62,592 bases of DNA from Gemmatimonadota bacterium (GCA_039587445.1 JBDHIM010000012.1:1-62592), one strand, 5' to 3'; counted from the first letter of the stretch, positions 35,629-51,860 are shown. Made by a program: numbers and translations. Notes: generated from the letters alone by a model not told the origin.

Positions 35629-38481
35629 TCAGAGCGCCAGCCAGTACGTGATCTTGAGGGCGAAGAAGTTCTGGCCCGGTGCCGAGACCGAGTCGAGCAG
35701 GTTGCCGAAGTTCGCCGGATCCGGATCCTGGACCGAGAGGTCGTCGCCTCGGTTCAGCTGCCAGATGAAGAAGAGCGTGCTGCCGGGCAGGTACTCCCAG
35801 CGAACGACGAAGTTGGTGCGGAAGGATAGGGCCACGAAATCGCCGTCGTCGAAGCTGAAGACATCCTCGCCGTCCCGGACCACGATCGTCGCGGGGTCTC
35901 CGGGCTCTTCCGGCGGGAGCTCCTCGATCTCGGTGCCCGCGGTCCCGTAGATCAGCAGGTAGCGGCTGCGGGCGGCGAGCAACTCTCCGTAATCGAAGAA
36001 GCTGCCGGTCTCCACGAACGGCTCCCCGTACCACTCCACGCTCAACTCCGGGGTGATCGCGTAGTTGAGCCGCGTCTGGAGCGAGATCGTCTTCCGGTCC
36101 GTCGTCGCGAACACGTACCGCTCGCCGAACGTCGCCGGGCGACCGTTGTCGAAGGTGTCGACGTACTGCCGGGTGTTGACGAAGCGGCGCCATCTCGGGT
36201 CGAAGGAGAGCTCGAAGGCTTCGGTCGGCTGCAGGGAAATGCCGCCGTTCAGGTGCAGCCTCCAGCCGCCGAGCTCGTCGTTGTAGTAGAAGGTCGACGC
36301 CCGAAACCGCGTTCGTTTGCGGCGGTCGCTGAAGAACCCCGCTCGGGTGTTCCAGCCGAAGCCCTTCCCCATCGAGGGACCGCCGCGGGTGAGGTTGTCG
36401 TCCTGGGCGCGGGTGAGGACCTCTCCACGAAGGAAGCCGCCCCAGAAGCTCTTGAAGGTGGCCTCGCCGAAGAGCTCGAAGAAGGTGAACTGACGGTCCC
36501 CGCCGAAGTTCCAGGCGGCCCCACCGATCGAGTTCAGAGAGTACTCGTGAAACAGCGGACCTGGAGTGTTCTCGCGGTATTGGAGCCTCCCGATCGTTTC
36601 GATCCGGTCGGCCTTGTTCAGCTGCCCGAGGTCGTTGATCTCGAAGCCCGGGGTTTTGAAGCTGCCGCGCACCTCCCACAGCCAGTGCTCACCGTTCTCT
36701 CGCTCGAAGTCGAGTGCGCCGGTAAAGCCCGTGAGCGACGTTCGGGTGGGATCCAGCGTCACGTAGGCCGCATCGGGCCGCTGGTAGTAGCGGGCACTGG
36801 ACTCCTGAACCTCGCGGATCGCCGCGGTGTCCCCTCCCACGTACCCGAATCCGGCGTAGCCCCCCAACTCGTACTCGCCTCCCCCGAGGCGGATATTCCA
36901 ATCGGCTCCCCCGCTGAACGCGTTGCGGGTCATGATCTCTCCAAGGGGATCCTCGGCCGACGCGCCCACATCTCGCGCGACGCCCTGCAGGCTCATCCCC
37001 ACCGTAGAGACGGAGGCGCCGATCTCCTGCTGCAGCCTCATGACCCCCCATCCGGTCAGCGGCTCGACGCGGAAATCCTCCGTGGAGACCGACGCCGAGT
37101 CGAAGACCGTCGCGTACTCGTTGGCGGTGAGCGCTCCCAGGGCGCCGATTGAGAGCCCGGAGTTCAGGCGGCCCGTGATCTTGGCGGCCCCGAGGATGGT
37201 CGTCAGGTCGGCCGCATCCACGAAGTCGCCCTCTGCCTCACCGCCCGGCGGGGCCCCGATCCGGCGCGAGAAATAGTAGCGCGGTCCCCTGCCCCGTAGC
37301 AGCTGGTCGCCTTCGATGAAGAAGGGCCGCCGCTCCGGAAAGAAGACTTCGAACTGCGTGAGGTTCACCACGGCGGGGTCGGCCTCCACCTGCCCGAAAT
37401 CCGGGTTGACGGTGGCGTCCAGGGTCAGGTTGGGACCGAGCCCGGCCTTGACATCGAGGCCGAATCGGGGCTCGACCTTGGTCGCGTCCTCGAACGGATT
37501 GGCCTCGTCCAGCAACTCCTCGCTGGTAAAGGTCGCGTCTGTCGACACGTAGGGTACGATCTCGACGGGCCGGCGCGCATTGACCGCCTGGATACCGGTG
37601 AGGTCTCCGAACCAGGAAGACCAGCCCGACTCGTCCCTCGGGATGGCCACCCAGAAGATGTCCTCGTTCTTCGTGGGTATGTAGCGGTTGACGTTGATCC
37701 CCCACGCCTGCCCCTCGCCAGAACGGAACCGGAGCTGTGAGAAGGGGATCTGCATCTCCGCCGTCCAACCTTCCTCGTCGATCTCGGTCTTGGCCGTCCA
37801 GACGGGGTCGAAGGATCGGTCGCGCGAGAAGGCGCGATCGCCGGGATGATACCAGTCCAGCCGCACGCCGGCCGCGGTCACGGCGAAGCTGTAGGCCGTC
37901 CGCCGGTCCTGGTAGCCGTCGAGCGAGACGATCAGGCGCTCCGAGTTCCCGTCGCTGTCGCGGCGTGTCATCACGGCCCGGATGGCCTCGGGGTCCTCGC
38001 TGTACATCCGGGCGCCCACGTAGAGGTTCTTGCCGTCGTAAGCGAACGCCACCTCCGTACGTTCCGTGGGGGGCGCGCCCTCGACCGGCTCCCGCTGCAC
38101 GAAGTCCGAGCTGAAGGTCGCCGAGCCCCACACCTCGTCGTCCAGCCGGCCGTCAACCTTGATCGACGCTTCGGGCGGGATCCGGTAGGCCTGCATCGCC
38201 TTGCTCACGCAAGCGGCGCCCTCGGTCCGCCGGCACGGCAGCAAGGCCGCCGACTCGCCGGTGAGCTCATCCGTGATCGTGTCGGAGCGGGCGATCGGAG
38301 GCCCATCGGGAATCGTGTCCGTCGCCGCCGCCTGGGCTCGGGCCTCGGAAGAGAGCGAGATGAGCACGAGGAGGAGGGCGCAGGCTGCCGACACGCCGGC
38401 CCACGGCAGGCCACTACCGTGACCCCCCTGGTTCGAAACGATTGGCGAGCCCTTAGCCGGTCGCCGTGCCACCCGTCCCAT
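35629..38481 (-). CDS. DUF5916-like outer-membrane protein (CBM9-like N-domain plus beta-barrel)
   Basis: IKVDGRLDDEVW, FVQREP, AYDGKNLY, NPDFGQVEADP, FPERRPFF, SRRIG; C-terminal LKITYWL strand. Start uncertain. Confidence 0.85.
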   Translation of the reverse strand: MGRVARRPAKGSPIVSNQGGHGSGLPWAGVSAACALLLVLISLSSEARAQAAATDTIPDGPPIARSDTITDELTGESAALLPCRRTEGAACVSKAMQAYRIPPEASIKVDGRLDDEVWGSATFSSDFVQREPVEGAPPTERTEVAFAYDGKNLYVGARMYSEDPEAIRAVMTRRDSDGNSERLIVSLDGYQDRRTAYSFAVTAAGVRLDWYHPGDRAFSRDRSFDPVWTAKTEIDEEGWTAEMQIPFSQLRFRSGEGQAWGINVNRYIPTKNEDIFWVAIPRDESGWSSWFGDLTGIQAVNARRPVEIVPYVSTDATFTSEELLDEANPFEDATKVEPRFGLDVKAGLGPNLTLDATVNPDFGQVEADPAVVNLTQFEVFFPERRPFFIEGDQLLRGRGPRYYFSRRIGAPPGGEAEGDFVDAADLTTILGAAKITGRLNSGLSIGALGALTANEYATVFDSASVSTEDFRVEPLTGWGVMRLQQEIGASVSTVGMSLQGVARDVGASAEDPLGEIMTRNAFSGGADWNIRLGGGEYELGGYAGFGYVGGDTAAIREVQESSARYYQRPDAAYVTLDPTRTSLTGFTGALDFERENGEHWLWEVRGSFKTPGFEINDLGQLNKADRIETIGRLQYRENTPGPLFHEYSLNSIGGAAWNFGGDRQFTFFELFGEATFKSFWGGFLRGEVLTRAQDDNLTRGGPSMGKGFGWNTRAGFFSDRRKRTRFRASTFYYNDELGGWRLHLNGGISLQPTEAFELSFDPRWRRFVNTRQYVDTFDNGRPATFGERYVFATTDRKTISLQTRLNYAITPELSVEWYGEPFVETGSFFDYGELLAARSRYLLIYGTAGTEIEELPPEEPGDPATIVVRDGEDVFSFDDGDFVALSFRTNFVVRWEYLPGSTLFFIWQLNRGDDLSVQDPDPANFGNLLDSVSAPGQNFFALKITYWLAL

Positions 38482-38574
38482 CCGTGTTTGTGGGTGCTAC
38501 GGTGTTCGTGAGTGCTATCGCTGTTATCAGCGAGGATCTTCTACCCGCAAAGTGAGCGTGGTGCCGCGATGCCA

Positions 38575-41500
38575 TCAGCCGCTCCTCGCGACCAGGTACC
38601 GATAGGCGACGGGTATCGCGACCAACACGAACAGCGTCGAGGAGAGAAGGCCGCCGATGGTCGCCAGGGCCAGGGCGTTCCAAATGTTGGCGTCCTGCGA
38701 GCCGGAGAACAGCACCAGCGGTAGGAGGCCGAATACCGTGGTGAACGTGGTCATCAGAATCGGCCGCACGCGCTCCAGCGTTCCCTGCAGGATCGCCGCT
38801 CTCGTTTCCATCCACTCCCTCAGCTCACCGATGTGGTAGACGACGAGAATCGCGTTGTTCACCACGATCCCCGACATCATGATCGTTCCGATGTAGGCGG
38901 TTCGCGTGAAGGTGGCGTTCGTGTAGAAGAAGATCAGGAAAACACCGATCAGGGCCAACGGCAACGTCAGCAAGACCACGAGAGGCGCCGCGAGCGACTC
39001 GAACAGCCCCGCGGTCAACATGTAGATCAGTAGAACAGCCAGAATGAGCGCGAGGTAGACCTGTTGGCGCTCCTCCTCGGGCCATCTCCACTCATCTTGA
39101 ATCTCGAACCGATATCCGGGCGGAAGCTCTGTCGATTCGACCACCCGGTCCTGGATCAGGTCACCGAGTTTCGACGGGCCCCGATACTCCCACGTCACCG
39201 TCCGCTCGTACTGCTGGTTCTTTCTTCGGATGTTCGCCATGACGTCCCGCGCCCCGACAGAGGCCACGTCCGCGAGCCGCACCTCTCCGTCACCCAGAGT
39301 CGGCACCCTGAGGTTCTCGAGGTCACGGATGTCGAGCTCCCGGTATCCCGCCAGCTTGATGGCATACCTCACCTCCTCTCCCTCGAGGCGGAGCCGATCC
39401 GCCGAGAGCACCCCGCGGGCGCTGGCCGCCACGTAGCCGAGAAGCTCCTCCACGGTCAGGTCGAACGAAGCCAGGGCGGCTCGGTCCGGCACGACGACCA
39501 GCTCCGTCTCTCGATCTCGTTCGAACCAACCTCCGCTCGCGTTCGGATTGGGGTTGCGGACCCTTGGAAAGCGGCCGATCCGTGCAGAGATATCTTCTGC
39601 TATCTCCTTCACGGTCAGATAGTTGAAGCCAAACACTTGAAGCGCATACGTAGGAGCGGAGCCACCGCCGCCGTAGAAACTCGGTCCGAAGCCAAGAACC
39701 TGCACTTCGGCGCCCGAGAATCCGAAGCTGTAGGCCGCCAGCTGATCCTTGACGGCGACCGGCACGCCCGTTCGCTCGAGCTCCAGGGGGAAGGTGACGC
39801 GTATTCTGGCATAGCCTGGTCGAACCAGTGCCTCGTACCGCTTCACCTCCGGCAGCGTGGCGAGGCGGCCCTCGAACGAACGCGCCAGCTCATCGGTTCG
39901 CTCCAGCTCGGCCCCACGCGGAAAGCGGATGTTGACGACGATGTAGGTGTCCTGACCGAAGGCGGAGGACCAGAGAAGGCCGCGGTCCACGTGCCGGTCG
40001 AAGAGCCAGAAGCTTCCGGCCAGACAGGCGACGCTGATGAGACCCACGAGCACGGGGTGATCGAGCGCCCGTGAGAGCAGAGCCCGGTACGCCCGCACGT
40101 AGGCCGGTTCGAGCCCGGGTCGGTCGGGGCCTGGTGGGTGCCGGACGCCCCTTGTCGCGGGCGTCGCCCGCCGCCGGCCGAAGGATCGCCCGGCGGTCAT
40201 GGCCGGCACGAATGTGAAGGCCACGAACAGGCTGGCGAGGATCGAGAAACCAACGGCATAGGCGAGCGGCAGATAGTAGATCCTGAGATCCCCCTGCAGG
40301 AGCAGAAAGGGCGCCAGCACAATCCCCGTGGTCCCCGTCGCCGCCAGAACGGGCAGGAGCACCTGCCGCGCTCCGTCGCGCGAGGCATCCACCCGACCCT
40401 TTCCCTGCCCCATGTGGCGCTCGACGTTCTCGAGCACGACGATGCCGTTGTCCACGACGAGGCCGAAGCCCCACGCCAGGCCGGCCAGGGTCAGCACGTT
40501 GAGAGAGAAGCCGCCCATGTAGAGGAGATTCACGGCGATCAACACGCTGAAGCCGATCGTCGCGAACACGATCGCCACCGCCCGCGTCGAGCGCAGGAAT
40601 GCCATCAGTACGAGGAAGATGACGAGTGCGGCCGCCATCGCCCGCAGCCGCAGGTCCGTCAGCTGCTCCCGGATCTCCTCGCTCTGATCCGAGTCGAGAT
40701 CGAGCGTGAGGCCGGGCGGCAGGGCCTCTTCGATCTTCCCGATCTCCGCCTTCACCGCCTCCGCCGTTTCGACGGCGTTCGAGCGCGACCCCCGGGTGAT
40801 GACGAGCCAGATCGCCGGCCGGCCGTCGATACGCGTGTACTCGTAGGGATCGGCATGCCCATCTCGCACCCGCCCGAGATCCGAGAGCCGTACAGGCCCC
40901 TCCGGACGCGTGGCCACGATGAGTCGGCCGAGCTCCCTCACGTCCGTGGGCCGGGACCGGATGGCCAGGGCGACACGCATGCCGTCCAGCTCGACAGAGC
41001 CCGGGGCCCGGAGCTCCGACGAACGGGCCACGAGCCTCTGGACCTCGCCCAGCGTTAGCCCCAACGCGCTCATGCGCTGCGCGTCCAGCTCGATCGACAC
41101 CTCTCGCTCCTCGCCGCCGTACAGCCAGACGGCGTCGACGCCCTCCATCCCGAGGAGGCGGGGCCGAACCTCTTCGTTCGCGACCCTAGTGAGGAATCCC
41201 TCGTCGTATGGGCCCGTCAGGCGGTAGGAGAGAAACGGACGGCCCCCGTCGGCGAACTCATCGGGCACGTACGGTTCGACGACGGTGGTGGCACCTTCCG
41301 GCAACTCATCGCGCAGCGCCGACACGCGCTCGCTCAGCTCCAGGCGGGCGAACTCCATACGGGTCTTTCGGCCGAATTCGACGTCCACCTCGGCCGTCGA
41401 GCCGGTGCCGAACAGGTCGATTCGCGAGACCGACTCCACGGATCTCACCCCGCGAACCTGCCGTGCCTCCGCCTCGATGCGGACCGTGACCAGCGACTCG

Positions 41501-41670
41501 AGCGCCTCGGGAGAGGCGCCGGGCCACTCGGCCCGCACCCTCAGCCGTGGATAGGAGACATCTGGAAGGAGCTCCAGCGGGATCAGGCGAAACGCATACA
41601 GACCCAGGAGCAGGAGAGCGAGGTAGATCGCCGCCGTCGCGACGGGGCGCCGGATCGCCATTCCGATCAT
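38575..41670 (-). CDS. RND efflux permease subunit 2 (AcrB/MdtC-like)
   Basis: AIRRPVA, LELLPDVSYP, GLVVDNGIVVLEN, GIVVNNAIL, RVRPILMTT. Confidence 0.95.
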   Translation of the reverse strand: MIGMAIRRPVATAAIYLALLLLGLYAFRLIPLELLPDVSYPRLRVRAEWPGASPEALESLVTVRIEAEARQVRGVRSVESVSRIDLFGTGSTAEVDVEFGRKTRMEFARLELSERVSALRDELPEGATTVVEPYVPDEFADGGRPFLSYRLTGPYDEGFLTRVANEEVRPRLLGMEGVDAVWLYGGEEREVSIELDAQRMSALGLTLGEVQRLVARSSELRAPGSVELDGMRVALAIRSRPTDVRELGRLIVATRPEGPVRLSDLGRVRDGHADPYEYTRIDGRPAIWLVITRGSRSNAVETAEAVKAEIGKIEEALPPGLTLDLDSDQSEEIREQLTDLRLRAMAAALVIFLVLMAFLRSTRAVAIVFATIGFSVLIAVNLLYMGGFSLNVLTLAGLAWGFGLVVDNGIVVLENVERHMGQGKGRVDASRDGARQVLLPVLAATGTTGIVLAPFLLLQGDLRIYYLPLAYAVGFSILASLFVAFTFVPAMTAGRSFGRRRATPATRGVRHPPGPDRPGLEPAYVRAYRALLSRALDHPVLVGLISVACLAGSFWLFDRHVDRGLLWSSAFGQDTYIVVNIRFPRGAELERTDELARSFEGRLATLPEVKRYEALVRPGYARIRVTFPLELERTGVPVAVKDQLAAYSFGFSGAEVQVLGFGPSFYGGGGSAPTYALQVFGFNYLTVKEIAEDISARIGRFPRVRNPNPNASGGWFERDRETELVVVPDRAALASFDLTVEELLGYVAASARGVLSADRLRLEGEEVRYAIKLAGYRELDIRDLENLRVPTLGDGEVRLADVASVGARDVMANIRRKNQQYERTVTWEYRGPSKLGDLIQDRVVESTELPPGYRFEIQDEWRWPEEERQQVYLALILAVLLIYMLTAGLFESLAAPLVVLLTLPLALIGVFLIFFYTNATFTRTAYIGTIMMSGIVVNNAILVVYHIGELREWMETRAAILQGTLERVRPILMTTFTTVFGLLPLVLFSGSQDANIWNALALATIGGLLSSTLFVLVAIPVAYRYLVARSG

Positions 41671-44600
41671 GGGATGTCGCCCAGCTGTTCACCACCGGCC
41701 GCGACGAGCGAATAGACCACCGGCACCACGATGAGCGTCAGGAAAGTCGCGGAGATGAGGCCGCCGATGACGACGACCGCGAGAGGAGAGCGGAGATCCG
41801 CGCCGGCGCCCCAACCGAGGGCGAGCGGGATGAGACCGAGCACCGTGGTCGCGGTCGTCATCAGGATGGGCCTCAGGCGCAGCCGTCCGGCCTCGGCGAT
41901 CGCTTCCTTCAACGCGAGTCCACCTCGTCGTCGCTGGTTGATGAAGTCGACTTTGACGATCGCGTCGTTCACCACGATCCCTATCAGAATGACCAGCCCG
42001 ATACCGCTCATCAGATTGATGCCACCTCCCGTGAGCCAGAGGGCTGGTACCGCGCCCACGGCCGCGAGCGGGACCGCCACCAGGACGACGACCGGCTGCA
42101 GAAGAGACTCGAACTGAGCGGCGAGGATGAGGTAGACCAGAAAGAGGGCAAGCCCGAAGGCGAAAAAGAGGGAGCGGAAGCTCGCGCGCATCTCCTCGTT
42201 CTCTCCGCCAACAGCCAGGGTGGTTCGCGGCGGTCGAGGCATCCCCTCGAGTCGCGCCTCGGCATGGCTGACCGCCTCGGTCAGTCCGGCACCCGCCACC
42301 TCCGCGAGCACCTGCACCGTTCGGCTCTGGTCCTCGCGGAGGATCTCGACGGGACCATAGCCCTGGCGAACCCGAACGACCTCGCTCAAGGGCACGTCGC
42401 TCAGCCGCAAGGCCAGAACGTCGGGAAGCCGCTGTCTCGCCTCTTTCGGCAGCTGAACCCTGATCTCGAGTTTTTCGGAGAACTCCGTGAACGGCTCGGA
42501 GGTGGGCAGCCCGCGCAAATAGGATTCGATGGTGCTCGCCACATCGTAGACGCTGAGGCCGTATCTGGCGGCGCGGTCCCGGTCGACCTCGATCTCCAGC
42601 TCCGGTTGACCCAGCTGCATGCCGACGCGGACGTCCCGGAGCTGTGGCAATCCCACCAGCCGAGCCTTGGCTGACTCGGCCACCGCGACCAGATCAGCCA
42701 GCTCATCCCCCTGGATTCGCACGGCCAGGTCGGCTTCGTCCAGGTCCAGCGTCCGGCCCAGCGCGGTCGAGCGTCCGGTCTCGATCGCCACCGCTCCCGG
42801 ATCGATGCCCGTTCGCGCAAGGCGAGACCGGAAGTCGGAAACGACCCGTGACGTGGGCTCACCCGTCGGACGCAAGCGGACCTCGAGAACCGCACTGTTC
42901 AGGCCCGCCAGCTCGTCCTCGGTGGGCTCGCCCCGCTGAGCGCGGCCGACCCGGGTGAAGACGCCGTCGACCGCCTCCAGCTCGAGAAGCACTGCCTCCA
43001 GCGCCGCCGCCGCCTCATCGGTCGCCTCGATCGGCGTACCCACGGGCAGGTCCAATGCGACGCGGAACTGGCGCTCGTCCACATCCGGCATCAGGTCGCG
43101 GGGAAGGACCGTGGCCAGGGAGATGGCCGCGGCGAACACGGATGCCGCCAGACCGATGACGGCGGACCGGTGGCCCAGCGCCCAGGCGAGAGCCCCCTCG
43201 TAGCGGCCGGCGAAACCGCGGAAGCCGCGGTCGAAGGCCTCGAGCGCCGGCCCCGTGAGGCGGGAGAACGCGTGGCCAATCCCTCCCGTCACCTCCCTCC
43301 AGGTGAGGCGGACGGACTCCCTCGTGAAGCGCAGGGCACGCCGCAGCGGGCGAGTCTTCTTTTCGTCGGCCGTCCGCGCGGCCACATCGTGGGCCGCATC
43401 GTGGGTCTCGTCGCTGGTGGCTGCCGCCACCCCCGCCCTTCCGAACCGGGCCGCCATCACGGGCAGTAGTGTCAACGCGACGAGCAGCGAGGCCAGGAGC
43501 GAGAAGGCGACGGCAAGCGACAGATCGCCGAACAGGGCGCCCGCGACCCCCCGCACGTAGAGCACCGGCCCGAAGACGGCGATGGTCGTGAGCGTAGAGG
43601 CCGTGATCGCGCCGGCCACCTCCCTGCTTCCTTCGGCCGCGGAGTGCGCGGCCGCATCGCGCGGTTCGACCGCCTCGCCGGGCCCTGGAGCCGGCGCGGT
43701 CACCTCACCCTCGTTCCGGTGCCGGAAGACGTTCTCCAGCACGACGATCGAGTTGTCGACGAGCATTCCCACACCCAGGGCGAGACCACCCAGGGACATC
43801 ACGTTCAGGCTGACGTCGAACAGATAACAGAGTGAGAACGCCGCCAGGATGGAGATCGGGATCGCCAGGCCCACGGCCACGGGATAACGGGGATCCCGAA
43901 GAAAAAGGAAGAGCACCAGGAAGGCGAGAATTCCTCCCACGATCAACGCCTGCACGACGTTGGCGATGGCCTCTCGGATGAACTCCGCCTGACTCGTCGC
44001 GATCTCGAAGCCCAGCGACGGGAACTCCGCCCTCAACTCGTCGAGCACCACCTCGACACGTTCAGCCACCCGGACGGTGTTGGAGCCCGATTCCTTGAAG
44101 ATCTGCAATCCCACCGCCGGCACGCCGCTGTACCGCGCCGCTGTCTGTCTCTCCGCGAATCCGTCCCGCACCTCGGCCACATCTGACAGCCGCACCGGTG
44201 TTCCCCCGGTCGGCCTCGCCACGACGACGTCCCGTAGCTGCTCCACCTCCGTGAACTGGCCGAGGGTGCGGAGACTGTAGCGGAATCTGCCGCGCCTCAC
44301 GCTCCCTCCCGGCGCCTGATAGTTGGCCCGGTCGAGTGCGTCGGTCACCTGGGCGACGGTCACCCTGTACAACGTCAGCCGGGCTGGATCCAGAAGCACC
44401 TGGATCTCCCGCTCCCGTCCGCCGCTGATCGCGGCGAGAGCGACTCCGTCCTGCTGCTCGAGACGCCTGGCGAAGACGTCCTTGCTCAGCTCCAACAGCT
44501 CCGCGGGGCTCGCGCCGGATACGGCAAGCGTGAGGATCGGGTCGCTGCCCGGGTCGGAGCGGAGGATGACGGGACGATCCACGCTGCGAGGAAGTATATC

Positions 44601-44948
44601 TCGAAGATCATCGAGCCGTTCCCGCACGTTCAGCGCGGCGAATTCCATGTCCGTGCCCCAATAGAACTGGAGCGTCACGAGGGACTGTCCTTCACGTGAG
44701 CGAGACGTCACTCGCCTGACACCGGGAACCTGGCTGACCTCCTGCTCGACCGGCTCCGTGATGAAGCGCTCCACCTCGGGAGGTGCCGCATCGCTGTAGG
44801 TGGTCCACACCGAGAGCGTGGGGAACGCCACGTCCGGAAGGAGGTCGATGGGGAGACGGGCAAACGAGAGGACGCCCAACACGGAGATGCCAAGATAGAC
44901 CATCGCCGTAGCGATCGGCCGTCGAATGCTTAGATCTGGAAGGCTCAC
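41667..44948 (-). CDS. RND efflux permease subunit 1 (AcrB/MdtB-like)
   Basis: SIRRPIA, PIDLLPDV, GMLVDNSIVVLEN, GIVVNDAIV, RLRPILMTT; GTG 44948 chosen from the typical N-terminus. Confidence 0.95.
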   Translation of the reverse strand: MSLPDLSIRRPIATAMVYLGISVLGVLSFARLPIDLLPDVAFPTLSVWTTYSDAAPPEVERFITEPVEQEVSQVPGVRRVTSRSREGQSLVTLQFYWGTDMEFAALNVRERLDDLRDILPRSVDRPVILRSDPGSDPILTLAVSGASPAELLELSKDVFARRLEQQDGVALAAISGGREREIQVLLDPARLTLYRVTVAQVTDALDRANYQAPGGSVRRGRFRYSLRTLGQFTEVEQLRDVVVARPTGGTPVRLSDVAEVRDGFAERQTAARYSGVPAVGLQIFKESGSNTVRVAERVEVVLDELRAEFPSLGFEIATSQAEFIREAIANVVQALIVGGILAFLVLFLFLRDPRYPVAVGLAIPISILAAFSLCYLFDVSLNVMSLGGLALGVGMLVDNSIVVLENVFRHRNEGEVTAPAPGPGEAVEPRDAAAHSAAEGSREVAGAITASTLTTIAVFGPVLYVRGVAGALFGDLSLAVAFSLLASLLVALTLLPVMAARFGRAGVAAATSDETHDAAHDVAARTADEKKTRPLRRALRFTRESVRLTWREVTGGIGHAFSRLTGPALEAFDRGFRGFAGRYEGALAWALGHRSAVIGLAASVFAAAISLATVLPRDLMPDVDERQFRVALDLPVGTPIEATDEAAAALEAVLLELEAVDGVFTRVGRAQRGEPTEDELAGLNSAVLEVRLRPTGEPTSRVVSDFRSRLARTGIDPGAVAIETGRSTALGRTLDLDEADLAVRIQGDELADLVAVAESAKARLVGLPQLRDVRVGMQLGQPELEIEVDRDRAARYGLSVYDVASTIESYLRGLPTSEPFTEFSEKLEIRVQLPKEARQRLPDVLALRLSDVPLSEVVRVRQGYGPVEILREDQSRTVQVLAEVAGAGLTEAVSHAEARLEGMPRPPRTTLAVGGENEEMRASFRSLFFAFGLALFLVYLILAAQFESLLQPVVVLVAVPLAAVGAVPALWLTGGGINLMSGIGLVILIGIVVNDAIVKVDFINQRRRGGLALKEAIAEAGRLRLRPILMTTATTVLGLIPLALGWGAGADLRSPLAVVVIGGLISATFLTLIVVPVVYSLVAAGGEQLGDIP

Positions 44949-44994
44949 GCGAGGATCGGTTGGGGCCGCGCGCCGGACGGCGCACTGGCCGGTC

Positions 44995-46185
44995 TCACCG
45001 GTCCAGGAGCGCTCTGTGGTTCTCCAGGTGGACCCTGGCGTCATGCGTCAGCGTCGTGTGGCCATCCACGAGCACGATCGAACCGGGCTCCAGGCTATCG
45101 CCATCCCGCTCCGGCGTAACCTCCACGAAGCCATCGTTCTCGAGGCCGGTGCGAACGTACACCCACTTGGCAAAGCCCGTGGCGCCGCCGGGCTCGTCAG
45201 GATGCAGGAGGAAGACCACGTCCCGCTTGTCTCGCTCCACGATCGCATCTCGCGCCACGAAAAGGCGGTCGGCGAATCGACGCCCGGCGATCTCGACCTC
45301 GGCGAACATGCCCGGGAGAACCTTGGCCTGAGGGTTTCGAAGACGCACCGCGACCCGGGCCGTTCCGGTCTCGTGGTTGACCATCGGATTGACGGTCTCC
45401 ACCTGTCCCTCGAACGGCTCCTCCGGCAGTGCGGCGAACCGGACCGTCGCGACTCGCCCCGGTTCGACGGCCGGCAGCGCGCGCTCCAGAACCTCGACCT
45501 CGACGTCGACAGTCGAGAGGTCGACGACTTCGACGACGGCATCGCCCACCTGAAGGCGCGCCCCCTCATCCACGACGAGATCGGCGACGCGCCCAGCGAA
45601 GGGAGCGCGGATCTCCGTTCGCTCCAGCTGGTACATGGCCTCCTCCAGCGCCGCCTCCGCTCCCGGTATCCCGCTTCTGAGCCTCGCCAGACGTTCCCGC
45701 TTCGCACGAAGCTGCGCGTCCTCCAATCGGTCGTCCCCGAGAATCAGCCCCTCGAACTCGGCCTGCGCGTACGCCAGGTCCGCCTCGGCGCGCCGCACCC
45801 GAAGCTCGTACTCCGCGGGGTCGATCCGGACCAGCATCTGTCCCTTTGAAACCCGCGCGCCCTCCTGGACGGGCACGGAGATCACGGGGCCCGATACCTC
45901 CGCCTGCAGTGGCGCCGAGCGCAGCGGTGCCGCCCGACCCTGCGCCTCTACCCAGAGAACGAAAGTATCGCGCCGGACCATCGCGCCTTCCACCGGCAGG
46001 GCGATCTCGGTAGGAAACGCCTCGACGGCGGATGCGCCGAGCGCCTCGTTCAGCGAATCGGCGGGCACGGCATCATCGCCGGCTCGGTCGCTGGCCCCCG
46101 CTTCGTTGAGACGCCACAACACGCCCGCCAGGAGCACCAGTGGTACTCCGACGACGAGTAGCGTTAGCAGATGTCGGGGTTTCAT
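44995..46185 (-). CDS. RND periplasmic adaptor (membrane fusion protein)
   Basis: N-terminal TM; AEVSGPV...V.EG..V.KGQ.L..ID, IRAPFAGRV, PGMFAEV, VRTGL. Confidence 0.95.
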   Translation of the reverse strand: MKPRHLLTLLVVGVPLVLLAGVLWRLNEAGASDRAGDDAVPADSLNEALGASAVEAFPTEIALPVEGAMVRRDTFVLWVEAQGRAAPLRSAPLQAEVSGPVISVPVQEGARVSKGQMLVRIDPAEYELRVRRAEADLAYAQAEFEGLILGDDRLEDAQLRAKRERLARLRSGIPGAEAALEEAMYQLERTEIRAPFAGRVADLVVDEGARLQVGDAVVEVVDLSTVDVEVEVLERALPAVEPGRVATVRFAALPEEPFEGQVETVNPMVNHETGTARVAVRLRNPQAKVLPGMFAEVEIAGRRFADRLFVARDAIVERDKRDVVFLLHPDEPGGATGFAKWVYVRTGLENDGFVEVTPERDGDSLEPGSIVLVDGHTTLTHDARVHLENHRALLDR

Positions 46186-46275: not shown

Positions 46276-46752
46276 TCACCCTGTAGACAGCCGCCCTCCG
46301 GTTCGCGTTGCCCTCGAGAAACCGTCCCGCGATCGCATCCGCGCTCTCCGAAAGAACAGGTAGGCCAGACAGCCCAGGAGGAAGGTCCAAGGCAGCTGCA
46401 GGCTGGCGTCCCGGGCTTCGACCTGCCAGGCGCCTCTCGCGGATCGTTCTTCTTTTCGCACTGCAAGATAGAACGGTGTCCGAAGCGTAGACCAGCGGGT
46501 GTCGACGGGTCGTTGATAGGAGGACGCCTCGGACTCTCCCGGGATCTCCGGGCTCCCGCCGATCGGCACGCCGAGCAGGCCGCCAAGAAAGGACGACACG
46601 AGGATGGCCGGCCAGACCCAGCGCGCGGAAACTGCCGGTCCGGCCTTCTGGCTTCCCGCGCCCGGAAGTCGTCGCGCGTCCGCGATCATCCAGACGAGGA
46701 TCAAGATGGCTAGTACGGAGAGGGAGATCCCTGCGGCATCGATCCAGTTCAT
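46276..46752 (-). CDS. hypothetical 3-TM membrane protein (158 aa)
   Basis: Three hydrophobic segments; ATGA overlap with the upstream propeller gene. Confidence 0.7.
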   Translation of the reverse strand: MNWIDAAGISLSVLAILILVWMIADARRLPGAGSQKAGPAVSARWVWPAILVSSFLGGLLGVPIGGSPEIPGESEASSYQRPVDTRWSTLRTPFYLAVRKEERSARGAWQVEARDASLQLPWTFLLGCLAYLFFRRARMRSRDGFSRATRTGGRLSTG

Positions 46753-47807
46753 GGTGTTCGCTCCTTTCGGGGTCGCCAGGCGACCAGGGTCGGGTATGGG
46801 CGCTCATGCAGGGCGTAGACGAGCCCGTCAGCGTATACGGCGTGACGGGGCCGGATCGGCAGACGCAGGCTCTCCACGTAGGAGCCATCGTCCAGGGAGT
46901 AGACATCCATGACCCGATGGCGGTCGGACGAGTTGCCGCCGAAAAAGACATAGACACGGCCGCGAGAGAGCGAGACGGTCTCGGCGGCGAAGACCACGCC
47001 GGTGAGCCAGGAGGCTCGCTCCCTGCGACCGAGACTGAATCGACCCCTCTGTGCGACTCGGGGAAACTCCACCCGTTCGATGTACCGGCCTCGATATCCG
47101 AGCCAGCTGGTGGAGAGAAAGGCGAAGAAGCCGTCGCCGAGCCCGTAGGCCCCCACCCATCCTCCCTCCGTCGGATCGTGGCCGACGACGAGCTGGGAGG
47201 CCAGCGGATGCAGTCGCTCGTGTTCCGGCGATGGGAACGAAACGCGTTCGAGGACCTGGCCGCTGGGCGACAGCCGGACGATCGGCCGATCGGCCTCGAA
47301 CGTCAGGAGGATCACGCCGCCACCCTCCTCCGGAACGATTCCATCCGCGGTCCGTCCCACCGCCGAGAGCGGGATCCGGCCGTCGGAGGCTCCGTGCTCG
47401 TCGATTAGGGTGACGCGGCCGTTCGCGACATCCAGCACCCAGGTTCTCCCCTGGCGATCCATATGGATGTCGCGGGGATGAGTGAACTCCTCCGGTCCTT
47501 TGCCCTTACGGCCGAAGCTCCAGAGAAGACGTCCGTGGCTATCAAACCGAAGGACGCGACCGGCTTCACGGTCGAGGACCGATACGCCGGCCCCGTCCGC
47601 GGCGAGTCGGGTCGGTAGCTGGAGCAGCGTGTCCTGAGGGCCACCTACGACGAACGCCGTGTCCCACGCGATGACCGCCCATCGACGGCCCCGGGGCTCG
47701 GCCCGTCGGCCCCGATCGGCATCCTCCCGGTCGGGGACGCAACCGTTCGACAGGCACAGCGCTGCCAAGGCGACACCGCACCTCATCGGCATGCTGGCTG
47801 CCGTCAT
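46749..47807 (-). CDS. 6-bladed beta-propeller (NHL-like) lipoprotein
   Basis: Lipobox LSNGC; blades LLQLPTRLAAD...RVLRFDSHGRLLWSFGRKGKGPEEFTHPRDI; ATGA overlaps at both ends. Confidence 0.85.
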   Translation of the reverse strand: MTAASMPMRCGVALAALCLSNGCVPDREDADRGRRAEPRGRRWAVIAWDTAFVVGGPQDTLLQLPTRLAADGAGVSVLDREAGRVLRFDSHGRLLWSFGRKGKGPEEFTHPRDIHMDRQGRTWVLDVANGRVTLIDEHGASDGRIPLSAVGRTADGIVPEEGGGVILLTFEADRPIVRLSPSGQVLERVSFPSPEHERLHPLASQLVVGHDPTEGGWVGAYGLGDGFFAFLSTSWLGYRGRYIERVEFPRVAQRGRFSLGRRERASWLTGVVFAAETVSLSRGRVYVFFGGNSSDRHRVMDVYSLDDGSYVESLRLPIRPRHAVYADGLVYALHERPYPTLVAWRPRKERTP

Positions 47808-48313
47808 CCCACCGCCCCGGCGACTCGTCGCGCGTACTGTTCGATGAGCCGGCCGGCCTCCCGCTGCAGGCTCGCGTCCGACACCGGCGGAAGGATCAGA
47901 AGAGGACGGCCAGCCGCGTCCAGTAGGACGCTCGTCGGCGTCCGGCTCTGCCCTGCCCTGGCGAGCAGCCGTTCCGCGACCCGACCGAGGTCGTATCGCA
48001 CGGGGAACGTCGGCCCGTGCTCACCAAGAATCGAGTCCCGGGCGGAGGGCGTCGGCGGGAAACCGATCCCAACCCCGAGCACATCCACATGGCCTCGCTC
48101 GGCCAGGGCGTTCCAACGCTCCACCAATCCCCCGTACCGGCGACAATCCTCCGGCTGGAACAGCAACACCAGCGTCGGGCGTTCGACGCCCTCGATGGCG
48201 GCATGCGGAGCCGAAAGGGCGCGATACTCGCCGAAGCGCACCGCCGACAGGGCCGTCAGGAGCGCGGCCGCCGAGAACAGCAGACGCGCTCCCGTGAAGC
48301 GGGGGCCGCTCAG
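47804..48313 (-). CDS. membrane-anchored thioredoxin-fold (TlpA-like) protein with a single active-site Cys
   Basis: LVLLFQPEDCRRY, VDVLGVG and cis-Pro loop TPTSVLLD..G. The N-terminal TM anchor lies upstream of the first GTG (48241), so CTG 48313 is proposed as the start. Confidence 0.7.
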   Translation of the reverse strand: MSGPRFTGARLLFSAAALLTALSAVRFGEYRALSAPHAAIEGVERPTLVLLFQPEDCRRYGGLVERWNALAERGHVDVLGVGIGFPPTPSARDSILGEHGPTFPVRYDLGRVAERLLARAGQSRTPTSVLLDAAGRPLLILPPVSDASLQREAGRLIEQYARRVAGAVG

Positions 48314-48627
48314 CTGCAGCGCCTGGGCTCCCAGCCGATGTAGTCCTCACCCCATCGGCAGCCACCGTCGCCCGGCTCTTCCAGCCACGGGTCGTCAGCT
48401 CCTCCGCCCGAACCGGCCGCCGGGAAGTACTTGTACGTGGTCGTGCACTGTTTGTAGAACAGCATCTCCACGCAGGACTCGTTCTCCCAGCACACCTTGC
48501 CGGTGTTCGAGCCGTTACAGGTCGCGGCCGCCGCCTGCGGCTGGCCGGGGACGGCGAGATAGAGACCCGCCGCCGCCAGGAGGGACAGGGCGCTCGCGTA
48601 GAGCCGCGAGCGATTCGGATTGCGCAT
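48310..48627 (-). CDS. small secreted 6-Cys peptide precursor (105 aa)
   Basis: AGGAG RBS; Sec signal ending QAAA; mature ATCNGSNTGKVCWENESCVEMLFYKQCTTTYKYFP...GCRWGEDYIGWEPRRCS. Confidence 0.8.
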   Translation of the reverse strand: MRNPNRSRLYASALSLLAAAGLYLAVPGQPQAAAATCNGSNTGKVCWENESCVEMLFYKQCTTTYKYFPAAGSGGGADDPWLEEPGDGGCRWGEDYIGWEPRRCS

Positions 48628-48728
48628 GATTCTCACTCCTTGTCGAGGGAACGAAGGTTCGGACAAGAGTGCACCGACCCTTCAACCCGACGTCAAAGAG
48701 GAGATGGCCGCCGGACGGCGACCTCGGC

Positions 48729-49965: not shown

Positions 49966-50135
49966 ACACGCCGTCAAGACTAATGCGTCGAAGCAGCGAG
50001 AAAAAGTGTGGTGGACAGCTTGTCTGCTTCCCGTCGCTCCGCCTATACTGCCGCCGTCCCTCCCCCGTTCCCTGCCAAGAGGAGCCAGGGTTGCCCATCA
50101 GCCTCCGAAACAGATCCAGAGCCGGCTCCGGACCG

Positions 50136-51860
50136 ATGCGGCCATCGTTCGGGCTCGCGAGCCTGGCGCTCTTCGCTGCGCTCTTCGCCCTGCCGGGAGC
50201 AGCCGAGTCCCAGGTGCCCACCGTCCAGGACGCGCGGCTCCCTCGCAGTGGAGAGTTCTGGTTCGAGCTCACTCCTTCGCTCAGCTTCTGGAGCAGCCAG
50301 TTCGCGCTCGACTCGGAGCTCGCGGCTGACGGGGAGAAGGAGCCGCTGACCGCCGATTTCGACGGCTCGTTGACCCACCGGCTCTACCCCAACGCGCTTC
50401 CTTTTCTCGCCGACATCAACTCGGACTCGGACGCCCTTGGCTACGATCCGCTGACGCCTGACGAACTCTCCTTCGGAAGCCTCGACTACCGTGAGATAGC
50501 CAACCGGAGAATCGTCCTCCCGTTGGGACTCGAGATCGGCATTCTGGATCGACTCTCGCTGGACGTCATGGTTCCCTTCGTCCAGACCCGCTCGGAGTCC
50601 TTCTTCGGCTACGACACGACCTCGGCGACCGTGACCGCCGGGATGAGCGCCATCGAGGATCCGGCCGGCTTCTTCGGAGAGATCGAGACCGCGGAGACCC
50701 AGTTGGCCGAGCTGATCGACGGGGGGACGCTCACGCCCGAAGAGACGGCCCAGGCGCTTGCCCTGCTCGCCAACTCGACGACCTACTCCGAGGCTCTCGA
50801 GCGGAGGGTGATGGAGAACCTCTTCCTTCCCGTCGGGATCACGACGGCCGGAGGGCAGATGACCGCTGCCTACGATGCGATCGCCGCGGGGTACACCGCG
50901 TTCGGCCTCGCCCTGCCGGCCCTGGAGCTGCCGGCCAGCGCGACGGCGTCCGACCTGGCCGCCCTGTTCGCGAACACCCAGCTGAACGGCGACGCCCCGG
51001 GCACGGTAAACCGAGGCTATTCGGTCGGTGAGCTGGAGGTGGGCCTGAGGATCGGCCTCATCGACACATTCACGCCGATCACCGCGTTCGAGGAGCCCGC
51101 GCCGACACCGCTCGAGCCAGATGACGACGCGCCCGTGGCGCCACCCGAGGGAGAAGAAGGCCAGGACGCCGAGGAGCGACGCCCCGTGGAACACAGCGAG
51201 GCCTTGCAGCGACTGGCACGACGGCCGCCGAAGGTCCAGTTCCGGACGACAATCGGAGGAAAGTACCGCTTTCCGCTCGGCAAGGTGAACGGTGTTCCCT
51301 ACCTGGACCCGTCCAACTTCCTGGACATCCCGATCGGGGACGGGACGACCGACATCGAGATCTCGCTCTATCAGGACATCCGCGTGGGACCGCGGTTCCT
51401 CTTCCTCGCGAGCGGATACTTCGGCCTCCAGATGAAGGACGAGGTGGACCTGCGAGTGAACCCGCCCGATCAACCGTTTGGCCTGGCGTCCACCCTCGGC
51501 ACGCTGCAGCGCAAGCTGGGCAATTACATCGCGGCCCGCGTGGCCCCCCAGTTTTCGATCAACAACGCGCTGGCGATCGGCGCCGAGTACAGCTACTGGA
51601 ACAAGGGAAGCGACGAGTACGAGCTTCTCGCCGGCTCGGTGCCTACCGCGGAGCCGCTGCAGGTGGAGACGTCCCAGACCCGACACATGCTCGGCGTGGG
51701 AGTATTCTACCGCACGCAGGATCTGTGGGAGGTCGGTCGGACGAGCCTGCCGGTGGAGATCTCACTCATCTACCAGACCTCGATCGCCGGCTCGGGGGGG
51801 CAGACGCCTGCGGGCGACAGGGTGACGGTCTATCTCCGACTGCCCTTCAAGGTCTTCTAG
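50136..51860 (+). CDS. hypothetical outer-membrane (beta-barrel-like) protein
   Basis: Signal peptide (LPGAAESQ); amphipathic beta strands; C-terminal YLRLPFKVF; acidic Pro-rich insertion. Confidence 0.75.
   Translation: MRPSFGLASLALFAALFALPGAAESQVPTVQDARLPRSGEFWFELTPSLSFWSSQFALDSELAADGEKEPLTADFDGSLTHRLYPNALPFLADINSDSDALGYDPLTPDELSFGSLDYREIANRRIVLPLGLEIGILDRLSLDVMVPFVQTRSESFFGYDTTSATVTAGMSAIEDPAGFFGEIETAETQLAELIDGGTLTPEETAQALALLANSTTYSEALERRVMENLFLPVGITTAGGQMTAAYDAIAAGYTAFGLALPALELPASATASDLAALFANTQLNGDAPGTVNRGYSVGELEVGLRIGLIDTFTPITAFEEPAPTPLEPDDDAPVAPPEGEEGQDAEERRPVEHSEALQRLARRPPKVQFRTTIGGKYRFPLGKVNGVPYLDPSNFLDIPIGDGTTDIEISLYQDIRVGPRFLFLASGYFGLQMKDEVDLRVNPPDQPFGLASTLGTLQRKLGNYIAARVAPQFSINNALAIGAEYSYWNKGSDEYELLAGSVPTAEPLQVETSQTRHMLGVGVFYRTQDLWEVGRTSLPVEISLIYQTSIAGSGGQTPAGDRVTVYLRLPFKVF

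Follow-up and report, generated by a model that had tools for sequence, protein, structure and literature searches.

A Conserved Gemmatimonadota Gene for a Predicted Secreted, Disulfide-Rich Peptide and Its Linked Thioredoxin-Like, Propeller, and Membrane Protein Genes

Introduction

The bacteriocins sublancin and pediocin have dedicated thiol-disulfide oxidoreductases, BdbA/B and PedC, respectively. In the mau cluster of methylamine dehydrogenase, the light chain MauA and the propeller heavy chain MauB are encoded with the thioredoxin-like protein MauD and the membrane protein MauE. In animals and in the plant thylakoid lumen, the proteins NHLRC2 and SOQ1 carry a thioredoxin-like domain and a six-bladed NHL propeller in one polypeptide (PMC6107167; 10.1101/2021.03.16.435614; 10.1101/2024.11.01.621559). 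The subject here is a stretch of DNA of 62,592 nt from a Gemmatimonadota bacterium (GCA_039587445.1, JBDHIM010000012.1:1-62592; 65.5% guanine plus cytosine, GC), referred to as the window. On its minus strand lies a cassette of four genes encoding, in this order, a cysteine-rich peptide with a predicted Sec signal, a thioredoxin (Trx)-like protein, a propeller, and a membrane protein with three transmembrane segments (3-TM).

In NHLRC2 and SOQ1, as would be the case for the cassette, a Trx-fold unit and an NHL propeller act together on the noncytoplasmic side of a membrane, and SOQ1, in addition, is anchored in its membrane and has a small protein of the lumen as its client. Unlike in these proteins, the parts in the window are separate genes, the Trx-like part has one Cys in place of a CxxC motif, and a 3-TM protein and a mini-protein are added. 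The likeness of the Trx part is architectural, with no sequence-level orthology shown. A literature search retrieved no paper on DUF5128, the Pfam family that recognizes the propeller, or on the cassette.

The Peptide Gene and Its Conservation

The peptide is the product, 105 residues long, of a minus-strand open reading frame (ORF) that opens with ATG at 48627-48625 and closes with TGA at 48312-48310. A sequence-only reading of the window had given the coordinates of this ORF correctly and had left its strand unstated. The ORF is a real, conserved gene under purifying selection. It is taken as more than a chance frame because of its ribosome-binding site, its GC pattern at third codon positions (GC3), its homologs, the conservation of its Cys residues, and its ratio of nonsynonymous to synonymous substitution rates (dN/dS). 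GC at the first, second, and third codon positions is 0.60, 0.58, and 0.867, whereas a 261-residue ORF of the plus strand that overlaps the gene is without a codon-position GC signature of coding. No Rfam family or consensus promoter was found around the gene, and the one terminator-like site near it belongs to the plus strand and lies within coding sequence.

Among 5.8 billion proteins, a word-indexed search retrieved 33 homologs (58-91% identity), every one from metagenomes or metagenome-assembled genomes (MAGs). Few are named, and the name given is “hypothetical protein”; one of these comes from a Gemmatimonadota MAG. The homologs are thus already present in public protein sets, contrary to the earlier remark that gene callers often miss or ignore such ORFs. 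Among the 31 full-length homologs, from Gemmatimonadota MAGs, five Cys (C46, C52, C61, C90, and C104) are invariant, and the sixth, C37, is found in at least 90%, with W in its place in one sequence. Invariant or nearly so are also W47, N49-E50-S51, L56-F57-Y58, T62, W92, Y96, W99, and P101. The sequence-only reading had named a lack of homologs with conserved Cys spacing as grounds for its refutation; such homologs exist, and the comparison does not refute it. Over 12 codon-aligned genes, median pairwise dN/dS is lowest in module 1 (0.20), followed by module 2 (0.30) and the signal peptide (0.34); differences within module 1 fall mainly at third codon positions.

A genome set in which each species is represented once was scanned with the alignment of the two-module clade and yielded 12 loci, all in Gemmatimonadota/Gemmatimonadales MAGs, in agreement with the phylum guessed from the sequence. 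Within the phylum the distribution is patchy, the peptide occurring in about 12 of 401 genomes. No copy of the gene was found in plasmid and phage collections. N-glycosylation at the N49-E-S51 sequon was considered and rejected, as the sequon is not retained across the family at large and the locus has no linked glycosyltransferase.

Precursor Layout and Predicted Structure

The sequence features that had been listed for the peptide, namely, the N-terminus, module 1, the aromatic strand (CVEMLFYKQCTTTYKYF), the linker, and module 2, are all present in the translation, and the proposal of a peptide with two modules, disulfide-rich and predicted to be secreted, is supported. The signal region has an Arg-rich n-region (R2, R6, and R8), an 18-residue hydrophobic core, P27, and a run of Ala from A32 to A35. 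It is conserved among the homologs, and in the family alignment of 38 sequences at least 90% have P27. Cleavage would be expected near the A35/T36 bond. The resulting mature peptide of 70 residues is acidic, with an isoelectric point (pI) of 4.41 and a net charge of about −5.6 at pH 7; module 1 alone carries −0.6. The two modules are joined by the linker AAGSGGGADDPWLEEPGDGG, whose net charge is −5. An earlier suggestion made this linker a processing or metal-binding site, which its conservation does not favor, for it is the least conserved part of the peptide and is absent from most family members.

Structure prediction by AlphaFold2 (AF2) depended on the alignment supplied: with 31 close homologs the model was unusable (predicted local distance difference test, pLDDT, 50), and with the diverse 38-sequence alignment the pLDDT was 73. 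The latter model contains a helix at residues 4-24, one long β-hairpin (45-55/58-67, block pLDDT 71-85), and a small turn in module 2. The register of the hairpin sets C52 opposite C61 across the strands, as had been expected for a β-hairpin closed by the third and fourth Cys. A C37-C46 bond would then close the loop that precedes the hairpin.

Host-defence peptides of the β-hairpin type share with this prediction a short, two-stranded, aromatic-rich hairpin, here with a predicted cross-strand disulfide. Those peptides, however, are strongly cationic, whereas the window peptide is anionic, and Foldseek gave no match below E = 5; all 22 matches of the peptide model to the PDB had E > 5, the model itself being of moderate confidence. 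A defensin-like or antimicrobial nature, as once proposed, is not supported, the mature peptide being acidic (pI 4.4) and having no fold relative and no family match. The suggestion of amyloid formation or self-assembly likewise found no support.

The Wider Family and the Origin of Module 2

A profile search among 1.84 billion cluster representatives gave 47 matches, about 45 of which are genuine. P0063 (2100 residues) and P0073 (1072 residues) are long repetitive proteins that share short Cys/Trp strings with the profile and were set aside as spurious; P0096 (268 residues, in the same cluster as P0054), a candidate fusion, proved to be an over-extended ORF call. The family members are mostly single-module proteins of 64-95 residues, in which a signal peptide, a conserved Pro, and about 10 residues precede the Cys core. 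Their consensus is C-G-x6-C-x5-C-x8-C-T-T-x-Y-x-Y-[YW], and its four Cys are invariant in 38 diverse sequences. Many members stop directly after the aromatic strand, and others bear acidic tails.

Apart from the window's clade, just three metagenome proteins have module 2 (C-x-WGxDYxGW-x4-C): P0036, P0037, and P0039. Its motif, when back-translated, was matched in 4 of the 401 genomes of the phylum, all of the window's genus (g1) and each at the peptide gene, with 0 matches in the control. Module 1 is therefore the ancestral unit and module 2 a recent, lineage-specific addition at the C-terminus. Module 2 brings two extra Cys at once, in keeping with a C90-C104 bond inside the module that would close a Trp/Tyr loop.

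Pfam offers 0 families for the peptide at E ≤ 0.1, and NCBIfam offers none, its only match being a spurious one to GspL (13.6 bits against a cut-off of 150). The peptide is thus the founder of a clearly delimited family, about 45 clusters in size and with invariant Cys, that neither Pfam nor NCBIfam describes.

The Linked Partner Proteins

In all 11 genomes with a strong peptide match, the next gene downstream on the same strand encodes the Trx-like protein, which across these genomes measures about 160-200 residues and has an N-terminal transmembrane (TM) anchor. Ten queried genomes without a strong peptide match gave no strong Trx-like match, and weak ones were seen in four of them. Pfam does not recognize the protein. 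Its profile matches PDB chains weakly (3lor, E 0.0014; 3eyt, 0.0026; 3gl3, 0.021), and the best matches are all TlpA/DsbE-like. The invariant features are F-Q-x-x-D-C, where TlpA-like proteins have W-C-x-x-C, a T-P cis-Pro loop, and D..G. The residues that follow F-Q-x-x-D-C are R-R-Y, P-S-R, P-D-R, or I-R-H; a second Cys is absent in 18 of 18 sequences, in none of which a CxxC active site is found. A single Cys at the nucleophilic position of CxxC would suit the checking, shuffling, or transient capture of disulfides and not their net oxidation. VKOR, DsbA-like, and DsbD/CcdA proteins are encoded elsewhere in the genome; as general oxidative and reductive Dsb components are therefore available, the Trx-like protein of the cassette is seen as an extra, dedicated one.

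The start of the Trx-like gene is unusual. Its frame is open from 48346 and contains no ATG, GTG, or TTG before GTG 48241, although the homologs include the TM anchor. The sole start-like codons are CTG at 48334, 48319, and 48313, the last of which overlaps the peptide stop as CTGA. As the anchor is kept in homologs and no standard start codon lies 5′ of GTG 48241, translation probably begins at a CTG in the terminal part of the peptide gene, so that the two genes overlap. The stretch of this frame between 48241 and 48346 points to a noncanonical start or to translational coupling. The propeller and Trx-like genes overlap by 4 bp, and so do the 3-TM and propeller genes, in both cases at ATGA junctions; together with a Trx-like start inside the peptide gene, these overlaps suggest coupled translation.

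The propeller is co-located with the peptide in 9 of the 11 genomes. It reaches 28.3 bits against Pfam DUF5128 (PF17170; cut-off 22.9) and so passes the gathering score of a family of Bacteroidota propeller lipoproteins. Its profile matches the NHL domains of Thin, TRIM71, and TRIM2/3 in the PDB, with E from 6e-42 to 5e-29 over 3-6 matched stretches, and also chains of PAL and SOQ1 (SOQ1, E 0.007-0.03). NHL/DUF5128-like propellers have multiplied greatly in a large number of Gemmatimonadota, each of these genomes (G058-G400) giving 5-38 matches; the window's genome has one copy. Weaker Trx-like matches were observed directly 5′ of propeller paralogs in two genomes without the peptide family (G241:C1:698140-699620 and G199:C2:3980477-3981897), which hints at sister cassettes whose peptides are different and have escaped recognition.

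Eight of the 11 genomes have the 3-TM gene at the same locus. An alignment of eight sequences shows R44, W47, G58, G61, P82, P93, and F94 to be invariant. In Helicobacter, DsbI is a membrane oxidase fused to a propeller (PMC4597128); a role of this DsbB/DsbI type was rejected for the 3-TM protein, as the eight sequences have no conserved Cys. In two genomes of another family of the class (f6), the 3-TM part is fused N-terminally to the propeller (L047, 4137-5588, G288; L048, 3076-4521, G239), giving polypeptides of 482-484 residues with a lipobox-like fourth TM segment between the two parts. Such a fusion (a Rosetta-stone link) of parts that are encoded separately in the window argues that both proteins act together at the membrane.

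Three unrelated contigs of metagenomic origin carry the same gene set in a different arrangement, in some cases with a pair of peptide genes. Tandem diverged peptide copies stand beside a propeller or Trx gene, three in L024 and two each in L047, L050, and L051. In L024 (1185-3012, G208), three tandem, highly diverged genes for four-Cys peptides with signal sequences (75, 79, and 78 residues) come after a propeller gene, with no adjoining Trx-like gene.

A Proposed Role in the Cell Envelope

The favored reading, to which we give an even chance, is that a dedicated envelope module of four parts comprises the peptide, as client or ligand, together with the Trx-like, 3-TM, and propeller proteins; the membrane-anchored Trx-like protein would face the periplasm. 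According to this proposal, the precursor would be exported by Sec and cut by signal peptidase I at the bond named above. Its disulfides, likely C37-C46, C52-C61, and C90-C104, would be made by the general VKOR/DsbA machinery, and the cotranslated monothiol Trx-like protein would then check, shuffle, or hold them through its single nucleophilic Cys. The propeller would bind the folded hairpin, and the 3-TM protein would tether the propeller at the membrane. In the window's lineage, the module would stand at the head of an operon that also encodes an RND pump and an outer-membrane protein of the DUF5916 type, and the peptide or its complex may pass outward.

Several observations weigh against this proposal. 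The propeller is missing from the cassette in the two-module lineages G258, G389, and L002, so that binding to it is not obligatory; some lineages that have lost it retain the other three genes. With an even number of Cys, the peptide has no unpaired thiol that could enter a stable mixed disulfide. The Trx-fold assignment of the downstream partner rests on weak profile E-values, and it is conceivable that a Trx-fold protein with one thiol plays no part in redox chemistry at all. Finally, the AF2 model is of moderate confidence, with residues 29-44 and 68-95 poorly defined.

A broader proposition is that the four parts represent a new class of bacterial envelope system, a split and membrane-tethered counterpart of NHLRC2/SOQ1 with a mini-protein client or ligand of its own. 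It is put forward tentatively and as doubtful; if it held, the four-Cys hairpin family would be one conserved client lineage.

Alternative Explanations

The peptide could instead be a Sec-dependent, bacteriocin-like toxin, with the Trx-like protein serving disulfide maturation, the 3-TM protein immunity, and the RND pump and DUF5916 barrel passage across the outer membrane. Like sublancin, the glycocins, and pediocin, it is small and presumably exported, would have two or three disulfides, and stands beside a Trx-fold protein and a small membrane protein of its own (the co-located 3-TM gene). Tandem diverged copies in several genomes (L024, L047, L050, and L051), the patchy occurrence in the phylum, and the efflux genes downstream in the window's lineage point in the same direction; the MacAB-TolC tripartite pump is known to carry a small disulfide-bonded peptide of E. 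coli across the outer membrane. The comparison fails, however, at several points. The window peptide has a Sec signal and not a double-glycine leader; the mature form is anionic, and many relatives have long acidic tails. The locus is without a leader-cleaving ABC exporter, a protease or peptidase, or a glycosyltransferase, the neighbouring genes giving no ABC, C39, or glycosyltransferase match in a test for class II bacteriocin and glycocin loci, and its Trx-like protein is monothiol. Module 1 is under strong purifying selection (dN/dS 0.20), GC is host-like, synteny is of the housekeeping kind, plasmid and phage copies are lacking, and in other lineages the RND and DUF5916 genes are unlinked. 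The toxin explanation is for these reasons considered unlikely.

It has also been considered that the peptide is a small disulfide-rich subunit of a periplasmic propeller enzyme, comparable to methylamine dehydrogenase, in which Tyr and Trp residues would perhaps form a cross-linked cofactor. By analogy with the mau set, the same four kinds of part are present: a small exported disulfide-rich protein, a propeller, an anchored Trx-like maturation factor, and a small membrane protein. Aromatic residues that are invariant or nearly so lie beside the Cys (W47, F57, Y58, Y65, Y67, W92, Y96, and W99). What makes this explanation quite improbable is that the peptide has no Pfam match and hence is no MauA-type light chain, that the propeller is of the six-bladed NHL type and not a seven-bladed heavy chain, and that the cassette contains neither a MauG-like haem enzyme nor an electron-acceptor gene such as one for amicyanin or a cytochrome. 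Moreover, the propeller is dispensable in some lineages, having been lost where the peptide, Trx-like, and 3-TM genes are kept.

A periplasmic peptide that binds Ca2+ or another metal, in concert with the RND pump and the CaCA Ca2+/H+ exchanger nearby, is less probable still. The acidic linker (net −5), the acidic tails of many relatives, the cax-type exchanger directly upstream in the window's lineage, and the RND pumps downstream would suit such a function. These neighbours, however, are not conserved, G288 having an MFS transporter upstream and f6 lacking RND genes, and the acidic segment is both the least conserved part and missing in members that end after the YYP motif, such as P0050 and P0053.

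It is hardly credible that the frame arose by chance in DNA rich in GC or that it shadows a gene of the opposite strand: long spurious ORFs are common at 65% GC and the 261-residue ORF does overlap the gene, but the codon-position GC fits the minus-strand frame and not the plus ORF, the homologs are under purifying selection with variation concentrated at third positions, and the ribosome-binding site is strong.

Genomic Surroundings

The features of the locus are collected in Table 1. In the window's lineage, a cax-type CaCA Ca2+/H+ exchanger gene lies directly upstream of the cassette, and a block of co-oriented genes lies downstream. Family f6 does not keep the RND/DUF5916 linkage, and in G288 an MFS transporter takes the upstream place. 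In the relative L002, DUF5916 follows directly on the 3-TM gene without RND genes. No TolC-family gene is found in the window between the membrane-fusion protein, RND, and DUF5916 genes downstream of the cassette. The locus stands in conserved housekeeping synteny with XseAB, NAD kinase, and the CaCA exchanger, and its GC (0.65-0.71) is host-like (0.655); with these properties and without plasmid or phage matches, an origin from a mobile element is not supported. Divergent from the CaCA gene, a plus-strand ORF of 625 residues (49983-51860) has no Pfam or NCBIfam match, and syntenic ORFs of 566-599 residues occur in L002 and L004.

Table 1. Positions of the peptide gene, its parts, and the linked genes in the window.
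Feature	Position	Strand	Basis or remark
Shine-Dalgarno AAGGAG	48636..48641	minus	8 nt 5′ of the peptide ATG; read from sequence
Peptide coding sequence (P0001)	48310..48627 including stop; coding part 48313-48627	minus	ORF reading, homologs, dN/dS, GC3
Predicted Sec signal peptide, residues 1-35 (MRNPNRSRLYASALSLLAAAGLYLAVPGQPQAAAA)	48523..48627	minus	n/h/c layout, hydropathy, AF2 helix 4-24
Module 1, residues 36-68: C37-x8-C46-x5-C52-x8-C61-TTTYKYF	48424..48522	minus	Cys alignment, AF2 hairpin, dN/dS 0.20
Gly-rich acidic linker, residues 69-89	48361..48423	minus	alignments; variable in length and sequence
Module 2, residues 90-105: C90-RWGEDYIGWEPRR-C104-S	48313..48360	minus	C90, W92, P101, C104 invariant in 31 homologs
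Membrane-anchored protein with a probable Trx fold, single Cys (F-Q-P-E-D-C64-R-R-Y; cis-Pro T132-P133)	47804..48334	minus	profile, linkage
NHL-type six-bladed β-propeller, N-terminal signal/lipoprotein-like sequence	46749..47807	minus	DUF5128, PDB profile
3-TM membrane protein, R-x-P-F loop	46276..46752	minus	ORF, alignment, linkage, f6 fusion
Downstream co-oriented block	35629..46185	minus	Pfam matches; lineage-specific
Membrane-fusion protein	44995-46185	minus	Pfam
Two RND pumps	41667-45044, 38575-41670	minus	Pfam; joined by 4-bp overlap
DUF5916 protein	35629-38481	minus	Pfam

Conclusions

The role of the combination of Trx and NHL domains is largely open for human NHLRC2, which is linked to FINCA disease, and partly answered for plant SOQ1. 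The linked genes form a unit of four that could be expressed in E. coli and used to probe what Trx-plus-NHL modules do. If the proposed new class of envelope system is real, it would offer a tractable bacterial model for Trx-NHL proteins; in the window's lineage, it would also tie them to surface delivery through RND and DUF5916 proteins. The peptide shows, in addition, how a conserved core can gain a second disulfide-closed module inside one genus. Small exported proteins are under-annotated, and to our knowledge very few secreted products of Gemmatimonadota have been characterised. A toxin, a signal, or an enzyme subunit, whichever the peptide may prove to be, would each be new for this phylum.

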